This document shows, piece by piece, positions 1,674 through 62,665 of a DNA stretch of 64,000 nt. Where the stretch lies: NCBI GenBank assembly GCA_951406725.2, contig OX597817.1, positions 137,144,001-137,208,000 of the forward strand, in the 5' to 3' direction. A model generated the notes under the pieces. It saw only the letters and a program-made list of their open reading frames with translations. It did no database searches and was not told where the DNA came from. The DNA comes from Octopus vulgaris. Its lineage: Eukaryota. The translations under genes and the position numbers were made by a program. Position 1 is the stretch's first letter, and every line of letters starts with the position of its first letter.

Positions 1674-2745
1674 AGAGAGCAAATTTCAAAGGTCAGTGTT
1701 CATATTCACTCAATTTCAATTTGTTGGAATTCTCCACAATATACATAGGCCCATTCATATACGCAAGATATAGTAAAAATTCATAAGAATTTATAAATAT
1801 ATAAATATATCAAAATATAAATACATAAATGTACTTGCGATGTTGAATGTCCGTATTAAAATCAATGAGGAGGTTAGATGAGAAAGTTAGTATAAAATGA
1901 TTTTAAGAGGAATCCTGAATAAGTGCAAAGTCTGACGGCCGTTTCGGGAAGATATAGGTTGGTATGGGCGAGCTAACTCCAACCATAACAATCATCAATA
2001 CATCTCTCATCAGAGTTAAAAAGATTTAAAGAGTTGTTAAAATTTTAAAAGCCATGAAAGATTTGAGAATATTTAAAAACAATACTGTTCAAGCGGATGA
2101 TATGATTAGAAGTAAAATTGATTTCTTTATTAGGCACAAAGACCCGAACACAGAGGGGACGGTACACGGACAGACAGCGACAACACACGTGGGGACATCA
2201 ATTACGATGAATAAAATGAATAATAATATGAGGATGAATGTCTTACCTGAGCCCCAGCCTCAGGCAGTTACGTGTTACTGTTCATTTCTTCAAATTTTCA
2301 GTTCCTTATCTTCATAAATCTTTTTAATTTTCCTTTGGCCATACTAATTAGAAGTAGAGTTACACGTTAAGATTAATTATGACGCTATACATAATAGAAT
2401 TTTAAGACGAATCCAAATATCTGAAGGGGGGGGGGACTAGATTAAAATCCTATAGGTTACTTATTTTGGGGAAAAAATTTTGAAGTTGATACTTATCTAT
2501 ATCTACACTTAAAAATGACATCCGATATCTTATTAAGTAAACGTGGATCGATTCCTTCGTACATACGGACATTCAACATCGCAAGGATATTTATGCATTT
2601 ATATGCTGATATATTTATGAATGTTTAATATTTTAAACATATTAAAAAAAAATTTATATATTTATAAATTCTTCTGGATTTTTATTATATCTTGTGAGAA
2701 TTCCGACAATTTGAAATGGATTGACCTTTGAAATTTGTTCTCTCG
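1674..2745. mobile_element. Fold-back element (arms ~1674-1856 and ~2564-2745) with an internal hammerhead
   Basis: gagagcaaatttcaaaggtca...gcgatgttgaatgtccgta is mirrored by tacggacattcaacatcgc...tgacctttgaaatttgttctctc. Confidence 0.7.
1930..2017 (-). ncRNA. Type I hammerhead ribozyme motif, long stem II
   Basis: Minus strand: ct CTGATGA gagatgta...tatatcttccc GAAA cggcc GTC ag. Stem III palindrome ACGGCCGT, GUC site. Stem I is only 2 bp. Confidence 0.6.
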
Positions 2746-3040
2746 TAATTTTCTAATCTTGAAGCTCTATTAGAGCGTTAATTAGTAATTAGTACTGCTG
2801 TACAAAGTGAATAATTATACCATTTACTTCTTCATTATATATATTTCTTATCATTCATACACACACACACACACACACACACACACACACACACACATAT
2901 ATATATATAATATATGTATTGTTTATATATATAATACAAAATATAAATATATATGTATACATACATGTATACATACATATATATGTCCCCCCCTATATAT
3001 ATATATATATATATATATATATATATATATACATATATAT

Positions 3041-3270
3041 ATTTCTTTACTACCCACAAGGGGCTAAACATAGAGGGAACAAACAAGGACAGACAAAGAG
3101 ATTAAGTCAATTACATCGACCCCAGTGCGAAACTGGTACTTTATTTATTGACCCCGAAAGGATGAAAGGCAAAGTCGACCTCGGAGGAATTTGAATTCAG
3201 AACGTAACGACAGACGAAATACCGCTAAGCATTTTGCCCGGCGCACTAACGTTTCTGCCTGCTCACCGCC
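3041..3270 (-). mobile_element. tRNA-derived SINE family A (Meta/MESC-like central domain)
   Basis: Minus strand ggcggtgagcaggcagaaacgttag...gaattcaaattcc...gactttgcctttcatcctttcggggtc; multiple copies in the window. Confidence 0.8.
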
Positions 3271-5292
3271 TTTTATATATATACATATATATACTTCGTA
3301 TTACACTGAGTAGCGGTGCACGGTACCAGACTTTTCCATTTGAGTTAAATACAACAAATCACTCAAAATCGTTGTTAGAATATCGGTATAGGTGGAGTCA
3401 AGACTGTCTCGAGTCATCTTGCTTGGTATAATGACGTCAAACCAAATAGCGGTATTTTGAAATCACTTAGCAGTAAATCGGTGACTAAGTTAAGAGGGTA
3501 GATGTGTATACACAAGGGGTAAATGATTTCAATGTATCACCATTTGGTTTGACTTCATTATTGCAATATATATATATATATAATATATATATATATATAT
3601 ATATATATATATATATATATATATAAAATATATTTATATATATAAATAATATATATATATATATATATGTATATGTATATATACATATATATGTATATGT
3701 ATATGTATATGTATAATTGTATATATATATATATATATAAACATATACATACATATACATTTATATACATATACATATATGTATATATGTATGCATACAC
3801 ACACATATATATCTATATGCATAGACCTATGTATGTTTGTGTGTATGTATGTATGTATGTATGTATGTATGTATGTATGTATGTATGTATGTATTTATGT
3901 ATGTGTCTTTGTATGCATGTATATGTACATACAGAACCGAGCTAAGTCCTGCTCCAATAATTCTCTTATAAAGGCCAGATGGATGCTATTTTCGTGACTT
4001 TTAATTGAGAAATCGTGATTTCGTGCTTTTTCTTTTCTTTCAAGGGTTTGAGTGTTTAATAGATGTGAACTAAAGTGTTTGGAGCGTTCCAGATAATGGC
4101 ACTCTGACAAAATTAAAAAAGTAAATAACGAAGCAACAATATAACAAATATAAACAAGTAGAACAGAGTTGGATTTATCAAAAGTAAAATAAAATAAAAG
4201 ACAATTCCGTTGGCGAATATAACTCCTACACATCAGATTGTTGCGCCGCTTTTATATAAGTGCTTTCTAAATTACTCTGCAATTGCATAATTCTCACATT
4301 TCCGGCACCAATTCTTTTCCCAGTCACCGGTCTGTTGGAGCACCAATTCAGATAATAGTTACTAAATTTGGTGGACCACATTAGTTTTTTTTAGTACGGG
4401 CCAACTCTAGTGATACGTCTCATTTACTTAGGAACTCGTTAATTATCTACCGGCCCATTATTATTATCATTATTATTATTATTATTATTATTATTATTAT
4501 TATTATTATTATTATTGTTGTTATTATTATTATTATTATTATTATTATTATTATTATTATTATTATTATTATTATTATTATTATTATTCACCATCACTTC
4601 ACTTTTATTCTCTACATTTTTTTGCAAGCAAACACTTCCGCTTACTTACACATACTGCTCTCGCTCTCACGCACGTGTCTGCGTATGCATTCATACATAG
4701 ACCCGAATGCAAATTACACATTAAAATCGTTATGCGTAGACACACGAAATCAAATACACACATATATACGCACACATACACCTACACACATTTATGCCAG
4801 TCCAGAGATTTATTGTGTACGCAATAATTGTATGCATGTTCGCACGCGCGATCGTGTGTGTGTGTGTGTGTGTGTGTGTGTGTAAGTATGTGCATGCGTG
4901 TATATATATATATATATACGCAATTAAATCTGTGGGATTTTCATAGACGGAAGTGTGTGTCCTAGATACATCGCAATGTATCTGAGTTAAAATAATCATT
5001 TTTAACTTTTAACTTTTAACCCACAAAGAGACAGAGGAGTGGTGCCACTGAAATAACTAACAGAAGGATCAGAAGACTACCGAAGAAACCTTTTAACAGG
5101 TCCTCACCCATTCAAACCTCCACATATAAATATCAACAACCAGCCCTGTCTGTATCCCTAATTTCTGCTGGAATCGCGTTGTGAACTCGAAACCCCTCAC
5201 CAGATTCTTTGATAGAAATAAATTATATACAGAGATGTACTTGCATTGCGAGTGACTTGATCTGAGATCGTGTGCTGGAACGAAAACGATTG

Positions 5293-61142: not shown

Positions 61143-61700
61143 CAGGACGAGGCAGAGAGGACGGACGTTTTTGAAAACCTTACAAAATCATTAATTTTAG
61201 CTGCAAACAAATTTTATTGACAACAATGAGTTCGTATTGAATTTAGCAGTTGTCAAAGTTAAGTGTGGAAGGCAACATCCATCATGGTGTCCGTTTTCAT
61301 TGATGCATTTCTGAACGACTTCTTGGAAGTTGAACTCCACTCTCTCAAGCATTGCTCTGCGCTTAGCCCCATCGTGTGAACTGTTGCTAATGACCAATTT
61401 GTACGGGTGGAAATGCAGGTCTTCATGCAAAATATACCTTACGGATTGATTACCGATGCCAAGTTCAGTAGAATTCCTCCGAGCAGAGCGATTCGGACTC
61501 TGCATCAAAGCTTGTCTGACACGTAATTGTCGTAGGCAAGCATGCGATGCTCTATCGTCCACAGCGCCATGGCTTCACTTGAGAAGAAAATAAAATGGTA
61601 AGACACCATGGGCCGAATGCTACCTGTCGGACATATGTCCCTCTCCTTGGGGCTGAGTAATAGCCATTTCAAAAATGTCCGTCCTCTTTGCACCACCCTG
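61143..61700 (-). mobile_element. Internally deleted Tc1/mariner-superfamily element in (TATG)n
   Basis: ~33 bp imperfect TIRs cagg....gca.agaggacggac.tttttgaa, TA flanks; remnants MALWTIEHR, SPNRSARR...ILHEDLHFHPYKL and CINENGHH. Confidence 0.8.
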
Positions 61701-62602
61701 TATGTATGTATGTATGTATGTATGTATGTATGTATGTATGTATGTATGTATGTATGTATGTATGTATGTATGTATGTATGCATGCATGTATGTATGTATG
61801 TATGTATGTATGTATCTATGTATGTATGTATGCATGCATGTATATATGTATATGGTGGGGGCGTGTTCTACTTTCCTTTGAAACTGTTTATACATGAATT
61901 TTTCTTTCATCCCACTTGCGTATAACTCTGATACAAGATTATGTATTTTGTTATATTCTTCGATTTTCATTCACTCTATTATATCGCTTGTAATTATATT
62001 CCGTTCCATTAAGATATTTCCATAACTTTGTATCTAGGTAAATCTCTACCGTCGAAAGACCGGCTCCATGTTTTAGCTACAGCGAACACATGTGATATTT
62101 TCGTATAGGATGAACACCAACCAGGATGACAGTAAGAAAGTCAACAACAACAATAATAGTATTACTAATAATACAGTCATAGACATAGATTAGAATAATA
62201 TTTTGGACGTATGTATGCATGCGTGCATCTATGTATGTATTACTGTATGTGTGTGTATGTGTGTGTGCGTGTAAATGTATTTGCATATAATGCTATATAC
62301 ATCTATAGATGTAATTCTTGGACGCATGGTCAGTGTTATATCCTGGAGTAGCTAGATATTTCGAGTGTTACAACATATATACATACATACATGCAATAAT
62401 AACTATATATATATATATATATATATATATATATATATATATATATATATATATATATATACACATATACACACACACACACACACACACACACACACAC
62501 ACACACACACATATATATATATATACATACATGCATATATAAATGTATTATGCAAATAGAGGAATTTATCTGTAAAATAATATGACAATTATTTGGTTGC
62601 CA

Positions 62603-62665
62603 TAATAAAACTCCGAGTTTCGGATGTCGGGGCGGGAATCTGCTCCGGCATCTCGTCAGTTATTA
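62603..62665 (-). ncRNA. Type I hammerhead ribozyme motif
   Basis: taataa CTGACGA gatgccggagc-loop-gccccgacatcc GAAA ctcggag TT ttatta; 6 bp stem I, GUU site; the flank matches the repeat at 5955-6010. Confidence 0.75.

Follow-up and report, generated by a model that had tools for sequence, protein, structure and literature searches.

A 64,000-nucleotide stretch of the Octopus vulgaris genome (GenBank assembly GCA_951406725.2, contig OX597817.1, positions 137,144,001 to 137,208,000 of the forward strand; hereafter the window) contains 14 insertions, or one per 4.6 kb, which belong to 12 genome-wide repeat families (A to L) with minimal hammerhead ribozyme folds. On the best available explanation, these folds probably lie at the 3' ends of their families, three of which are tied to reading frames of Penelope-like elements (PLEs) of the Hydra clade, and the insertions in which two ends face each other head to head (fold-backs) likely arose from enzyme priming on both strands of an AT-rich target. 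A first-pass annotation, made from the sequence of the window alone, had counted about 12 such elements at roughly one per 5 kb.

Hammerhead motifs in the window and their families

Hammerhead descriptors were run on the window and on 100 block-wise (local) dinucleotide shuffles. An intact CTGANGA core with stems I and II of at least 3 bp was matched 4 times in the window versus 0.06 times in shuffles, and 6 versus 0.19 times with stems of at least 2 bp. Furthermore, GAAAC followed by a perfect palindrome of 8-9 nt and H occurred 11 times versus 0.81 (maximum 4). The motifs are thus enriched over shuffled controls, the comparison proposed in the first-pass annotation. A relaxed descriptor allowing two core mismatches discriminated poorly (13 versus 7.6). 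The strongest 150 of 435 Rfam matches listed for this microsatellite-rich animal DNA included microsatellite-driven microRNA models and no hammerhead model. In the 2.8-Gb assembly, Hammerhead_1 (RF00163) yielded 6 matches from 73 scored, and none of the window families, as mapped by blastn, was among them. These six matches (L081-L086) represent other families, three with a stem II insert of 60-70 nt, and a relative is present in the flank of locus L098.

The assembly was searched with each of the 12 distinct window repeats, scoring 40 matches per search and reading 8 to 30 loci per family. All proved to be dispersed families, for which a first look gave between 249 and 3,220 candidates each. 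Many window copies are truncated or decayed; the hammerhead fold was found in relatives of each family read. These relatives contain the CUGANGA and GAAA..UH boxes, stems I-III and palindromic stem III of the minimal type I hammerhead, as do several window copies. The exceptions are a stem I of 2 bp in families B and G, a stem II of 2 bp in family A and a G3-C8 pair in family C. The palindromic stem III, first recognized in the window motifs, recurs in nearly all families.

The motif coordinates of the first-pass annotation were all correct to within a few bases, and its list of complete or near-complete folds stands in part. A canonical core and three stems are present in the window copies at 41870/41929, 45673/45858 and 62603, whereas the listed motifs at 28737 and 34540 (families H and J) are decayed here and complete only in relatives. 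The motif at 15773 has one core change, that at 1930 an intact core with a stem I of only 2 bp, and those at 5368/5457 the core GTGAACA, i.e. a G3-C8 swap. Among the sites described as partial, 38308, 41450/41549 and 49824 (families L, I and B) break off within a long stem II, so that the first core box is missing, the fold being complete in relatives; 37919 retains the core with a changed stem III, and 50240 begins inside the core. One further partial copy, at 1510 (-), had been missed. A strict descriptor match at 52677 (-) with a 59-nt stem II region, absent from the earlier list, may be due to chance. In addition, a repeat of 95-115 nt, present as two direct copies within (CATA)n at 32418-32689, is hammerhead-like in a non-canonical layout (CAATGAA ... 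GAAACCGG).

Family A and Hydra-like reading frames

Family A was sampled as 30 loci picked by tail alone, several of which have upstream sequence in common beyond 1,450 nt. Two full-length copies (L088 and L090) each contain two motifs, separated by 3,341 nt and 3,356 nt, respectively, on either side of a 727-codon open reading frame (ORF), giving the layout pLTR-ORF-pLTR with a motif in each pseudo-long terminal repeat (pLTR). The single ORF encodes a reverse transcriptase (RT) and a C-terminal endonuclease, the latter recognized by the similarity of its motifs to those in the published alignment of Hydra elements (PMC8557442, supplement), and includes RWK, DKT, YRDD, CxCX5C, CxxC and CxH motifs without a CCHH string. 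A 527-residue part of this ORF matched at 99-100% in all 82 scored places in the genome, 80 of them without a stop; these dozens of near-identical frames identify family A as an intact, recently multiplied element. Its motif head has 2,668 exact matches in the genome. A TA run follows 28 of 29 classified ends, 3 of the 30 loci run on from the tail into the ORF, and 5' truncation, partial tandems, an inverted partner and an optional tail all occur. At least four subfamilies differ just upstream of the motif (L292-L321 and the motif-head matches listed).

In the window, family A forms a fold-back of two head-to-head 3' ends in (TA)n at 41759..42004 (both strands), with hammerheads at 41870-41904 (-) and 41929-41963 (+) on its tailed and tail-less arms, respectively. 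A second fold-back (50194..50381) lies at the (TA)n end of a family B copy, with its motif at 50232-50264 (-) and the junction inside the core. Solo tail remnants without a ribozyme lie at 50611-50728, with 80% identity to family A, and at 5889-6009, with 84% identity to family E.

Decayed Hydra-like frames were also found upstream in 6 of 15 family G loci and, for family E, in 1 of 20; this single locus was assigned to family E through sequence in common with L234. The family G copy in the window (1738..2696, -) is the 3' end of this second, decayed element, with a motif with long stem II at 1930-2015 and an inverted piece at 2563-2696. The family E copy (62546..62672, -), a 3' end tied to the third Hydra-like frame in that one locus, has a complete motif at 62603-62665. 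By these frames, families A, G and E are classed as 5'-truncated ends of coding Hydra-clade PLEs. The suggested link to PLEs is thus upheld, with the family A motif on both sides of an RT-endonuclease frame and related, decayed frames preceding families G and E. The description of the elements as a non-coding population is right only in part: families C, D, J and L look non-autonomous, whereas the sequence read places families B, F, H, I and K in neither group. Within the window, tblastn gave no match, in line with the earlier report that no Penelope ORF is present there.

Arm ends and 5' ends

Copies of family A end against (TA)n at one of two fixed sites, +71 or +141 from the core, the long and short ends being near equal in number (15 and 14 of 30). 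The site at +71 is a primary end, which also terminates solo and full-length copies. The ends at +71 and +141, each followed by (TA)n, recur in four contig sets, together with a depth step near -14 that, in contigs, cannot show RNA starts.

Head-to-head pairs nearly always combine one long, tailed arm with one short, tail-less arm. This was the case for 40 of 45 pairs in samples not chosen by tail: in samples chosen by motif head, 9 of 11 pairs in family A and 17 of 19 in family C were long-short, with the remainder unclassified and none long-long or short-short, and a cruder motif test gave 14 of 15 in family J. Tail-chosen samples gave 15 of 16 (A) and 18 of 20 (C), with one long-long pair. 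Among 59 long-short pairs, a set in which samples may share a few loci and the selection of family C forces one arm to reach -20, the short arm extends further 5' by more than 5 nt in 21 pairs and the long arm in 17 pairs; in the other 21 the arms agree within 5 nt. Sequence variants are mirrored between arms (37 mirrored and 10 private in family C, versus 1.7 mirrored expected; 15 mirrored in family A, with 1 of 26 loci discordant at both diagnostic sites), which indicates that both arms derive from a common source; only L019 has arms from two subfamilies. By hand count, the arms of 15 of 17 family A head-to-head pairs are of the same subfamily, and the other two pairs differ at a CpG.

The 5' ends cluster as well. 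In family A, 13 of 30 arms (by hand count, 33 among 100 matches listed) stop within about -21 to -14, at CCATTCT, which we take to be initiator-like. No family C copy reaches further 5' than about -25; GAGAT is reached by 10 of 30 arms, which then diverge, and no common upstream body was found across 60 loci. In 8 of 12 cases, family L copies end between -31 and -41, and many family J copies begin at their tRNA head. This accumulation of 5' ends just upstream of the ribozyme, rather than at its cleavage site, suggests that they are likely RNA 5' ends and that the templates were uncleaved. In Drosophila Penelope, the start is located in the pLTR, and an intron begins 46 bp further on (PMC2377424); the end of this intron meets the ribozyme (PMC4209133).

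Short families C, D, J and L

Family C consists of a unit of about 210 nt with a fixed 5' end and 6,815 genome matches at up to 2 mismatches, and is represented in the window by a fold-back at 5227..5578 with motifs at 5368-5419 (-) and 5457-5508 (+). Its hammerhead has a 7-bp stem I, an extra base after A9, G10.1-C11.1 and the palindrome AATATT, and 48 of 56 arms have G3-C8. An engineered G3-C8 pair rescues cleavage in part (PMC11167929), and the natural swap reported is U3-A8 (PMC3088659, PMC4209133).

Family D, present as a fold-back at 45528..46100 with motifs at about 45671-45713 (-) and 45858-45900 (+), is built of a head-to-tail unit of 345-348 nt without an ORF. A tail-to-head joint occurs in 5 of 20 loci, and none of the 20 has two same-strand cores. 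A head-to-tail joint in family C, searched with one pattern, gave 0 matches.

Family J combines tRNA-type A and B boxes, (AAT)n and a complete minimal hammerhead, the right half of which is exact in 17 of 30 loci, and has 2,048 exact genome matches. The tRNA head stands at the 5' end in 20 of 30 loci; strict A and B boxes are present in 8 and 15 of 30, respectively, and are 44 nt apart in 4 of the 5 loci with both. The single unit checked has no run of four T, and the head was recognized as a tRNA in 0 of 10 cases by ARAGORN and in none by Rfam. The window copy (34485..34767, -) contains the A box (34727-34737), the B box (34683-34694), (AAT)n, a decayed hammerhead (34540-34583) and a short inverted 3' piece (34737-34767). 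Family J is a tRNA-headed short interspersed element (SINE) with a Penelope insertion signature and is likely moved by a borrowed enzyme. Family L (38090..38449, -) is a young short unit with a 5' limit of -41, the window copy of which is truncated in stem II and retains the right half at 38305-38319.

In cofolding, dimers were predicted to be favoured by 3-13 kcal/mol, via stem III for families A, E and F and by stem swapping for C and D, a result expected for any palindrome and thus unused as support.

Origin of the fold-backs

We consider a Penelope origin of the motifs highly probable. The near-constant combination of one tailed and one tail-less arm suggests priming on both target strands, a step that we favour with moderate confidence. 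In the anole element, both target strands are cut and extended by the enzyme, which is predicted to be dimeric and initiates at two sites that delimit the tail; insertion is equally efficient with a dead ribozyme (PMC11167929). The octopus enzymes would likewise use each strand of an AT-rich target to prime reverse transcription, the ends at +71 and +141 corresponding to two such internal start sites, one used per target strand, and the two complementary DNAs (cDNAs) would then join at their far ends. It is also reasonably likely that many cDNAs run off the RNA 5' end, which would lie a few bases upstream of the uncleaved ribozyme, and so give rise to short palindromes. Short units that keep promoter, motif and both start sites (C, L, tandem D and the tRNA-headed J) may be copied in trans by such enzymes.

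If a single cDNA instead folded on itself and was copied back to +71, with later deletions blurring the centre, the Penelope origin would be the same and the mirrored variants, far above chance, the perfect palindromic junctions at AT and CTAG and the arms with 5' ends within 5 nt of each other (21 of 59 pairs) would all be expected. Such a snap-back requires, however, a long arm at least as long as the short one, and the short arm is the one further 5' in another 21 of the 59 pairs, including the young L059 (-799 for the short arm, -533 for the long), which argues against pure snap-back. It also gives no reason for a stop exactly at +71, a primary end of solo and full-length copies, and the arms of L019 belong to two subfamilies; we therefore regard it as rather unlikely. 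Close to the first-pass annotation is the proposal that all families are retrozyme-type non-coding elements, which cleave as dimers and spread via circular RNA. The head-to-tail unit of family D, with its joint in 5 of 20 loci, lies within the size range of non-LTR retrozymes (PMC7229834), stem III is palindromic in nearly all families, and for family D alone this reading may hold. As a general account it is improbable, as families A, G and E terminate coding elements, no head-to-tail joint was found for family C with the pattern tried, and a cleaved or circular template would not give fixed 5' ends upstream of the ribozyme.

Least credible, and in our judgement very improbable, is an origin as miniature inverted-repeat transposable elements (MITEs) or chance palindromes in which the motifs are incidental. 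TA flanks, a Tc1-type transposase in the window and the recurrence of identical family A palindromes are in keeping with it, but the arms are unequal, the centres are variable once loci are sampled by tail, the same ends run on into an RT-bearing frame, and motif counts far exceed those of shuffles. A fixed MITE-like unit for family A was suggested by a whole-palindrome search that returned near-identical fold-backs (20 aligned), a bias that disappeared upon sampling by tail alone. A Tc1/mariner MITE was likewise rejected, since fixed terminal inverted repeats at both ends were not observed.

Several points weigh against two-strand priming from Hydra-clade templates as we propose it. One long-long pair in family C and one short-short call in family J break the rule of unequal arms, later deletion at unstable palindrome centres could mimic uneven arm lengths, and the mirrored variants fit snap-back as well as one source. 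The assignment of family A to the Hydra clade relies on motifs and a by-eye comparison with the published alignment, its ORF had no Pfam or PDB match, its stem II has 2 pairs only and lacks G10.1-C11.1, and the predicted lowest-energy fold of this most active family is not the hammerhead. For families B, F, H, I and K, no frame was reached within 1.5 kb upstream, and no autonomous partner was identified for C, D, J and L, for J without a search aimed at one. No C3-G8 copy occurs among 100 listed of 146 non-G3 variants of family C, i.e. there is no covariation within the family, and its cleavage triplet is UUU. Finally, the RNA starts, and any cleavage or expression, are predictions made from genomic copies.

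As a tentative extension, which we think unlikely, two RNAs of an element might pair through the palindromic stem III, each then being copied onto a different target strand by a dimeric enzyme; families C, L and J would then form a class of Penelope-dependent SINEs. If the extension were true, the Penelope hammerhead would be mainly a template-pairing device, which would explain the fold-backs, the weak core of family A and the swapped core of family C.

Other features of the window

Relatives of families B, F, H, I and K have 200-680 nt of upstream sequence in common, at least 677 nt in the case of B. The family B fold-back (49604..50198) is truncated in a long stem II and retains the right half at 49824-49838. 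Family F (15638..15893, +) has its motif at 15773-15818, with the core CTGGTGA in the window versus CTGATGA in relatives, and a short inverted piece at 15638-15699. The family H copy (28549..29031, +) contains a decayed motif at 28738-28800 and an inverted piece at 28549-28616; around it, three nested inverted-repeat pairs span 28059-29599, the outer two of which look like common SINEs in opposite orientation, separated by (TA)n. The family I fold-back (41408..41697) retains just the right halves of the motif (41447-41462, -; 41545-41560, +), and its relatives have a full motif with long stem II. Family K (37691..38030, -) has its core at 37982-37988, a changed right half at 37910-37922 and an inverted piece up to about 38030, and the second family K copy (1225..1510, -) has the first core box only.

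A sodium:neurotransmitter symporter gene (SLC6, PF00209) spans 36650-52420 (+), with four exons confirmed by Pfam at about 36.7, 38.9, 48.7 and 49.3 kb; since these are interspersed among the elements, several elements are intronic. The window also contains a near full-length non-LTR retrotransposon at 9415-13042 (-), in several frames with RT matches (PF00078), which we take to be R4/Dong-like, a related 3' fragment at 21328-21642 (-), and a Tc1/mariner-type transposase frame of 290 aa (PF13358) at 14431-15303 (-). Fold-backs without a hammerhead motif, possibly MITEs, are located at 17169-17458, 25120-25664, 26538-27152, 45123-45433 and 51686-51748.

Comparison with known systems

The literature already covers hammerheads at the ends of Penelope elements, inverted copies and a Hydra element from octopus. 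Less known are the combination of long and short arms, the fixed position of the 5' ends, the G3-C8 core of family C and family J with its tRNA head. Neither a natural G3-C8 hammerhead (PMC3884650 included), nor a tRNA SINE moved by Penelope, nor twin priming in Penelope was found in the literature searched, the scope of which excluded Lunse et al. (2017) and, for the first two, also Repbase and Dfam. A recent octopus repeat annotation includes 893 SINE families without classification as well as Penelope families described as active, the word ribozyme being absent from the parts covered (PMC13282606), and 235 hammerhead matches were reported in squid (PMC6962438).

Family A resembles the Hydra-clade PLEs, including Hydra-1_Obim, in RWK, DKT, CxCX5C and CxxC/CxH motifs and the lack of CCHH, as well as in a hammerhead near the 3' end, a (TA)n target, a 5'-truncated partner in inverted orientation and a tail that is often confined to one end (PMC8557442). 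Hydra-1_Obim is listed with a hammerhead in the supplement of that study, which gave 0 matches to the family A peptides and motif, indicating a different family. In contrast to the published Hydra elements, family A has pLTRs, a 3.34-kb unit (the clade is generally under 3 kb), a 70-nt tail, dozens of intact frames and a stem II without G10.1-C11.1. The minimal type I hammerheads of metazoan PLEs (PMC4209133) likewise have an extra base after A9, a palindromic stem III and many families per genome, and are mostly solo with some opposite-strand pairs 100-700 bp apart, as here; they differ in that family C has G3-C8 and several octopus families have 30-85 nt stem II inserts. The anole Poseidon element PAc (PMC11167929) agrees in its two 3' ends bounding the tail, its AT-rich target and the tail that continues into the ORF in tandem copies; the passages covered mention neither a rule of one long and one short arm in inverted pairs nor an accumulation of 5' ends upstream of the ribozyme.

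Family D, an ORF-less head-to-tail unit of about 347 nt that has a type I hammerhead and probably stems from Penelope, resembles in these points the non-LTR retrozymes, in which ORF-less units of 150-450 nt, each with a hammerhead, are arranged in tandem (PMC7229834; bioRxiv 10.64898/2026.07.22.740005). The latter study derives them from pLTRs and reports cleavage of 1 of 9 tested dimers. Unlike these retrozymes, family D was observed only as partial tandems and fold-backs, and families C and L have fixed 5' ends. Closest to family J are the Schistosoma hammerhead SINEs, with a Pol III-type promoter followed by a hammerhead and a high copy number (reviewed in PMC6765202); single schistosome copies lose the promoter after cleavage, whereas family J copies keep the tRNA head (20 of 30) and have the Penelope fold-back signature. 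The origin of inverted Penelope insertions and the role of the ribozyme are stated as open questions in PMC8557442 and PMC11167929. A young, intact Hydra element together with thousands of short insertions that follow a strict long/short rule makes both the insertion route and the ribozyme role testable, by counting and in vitro.

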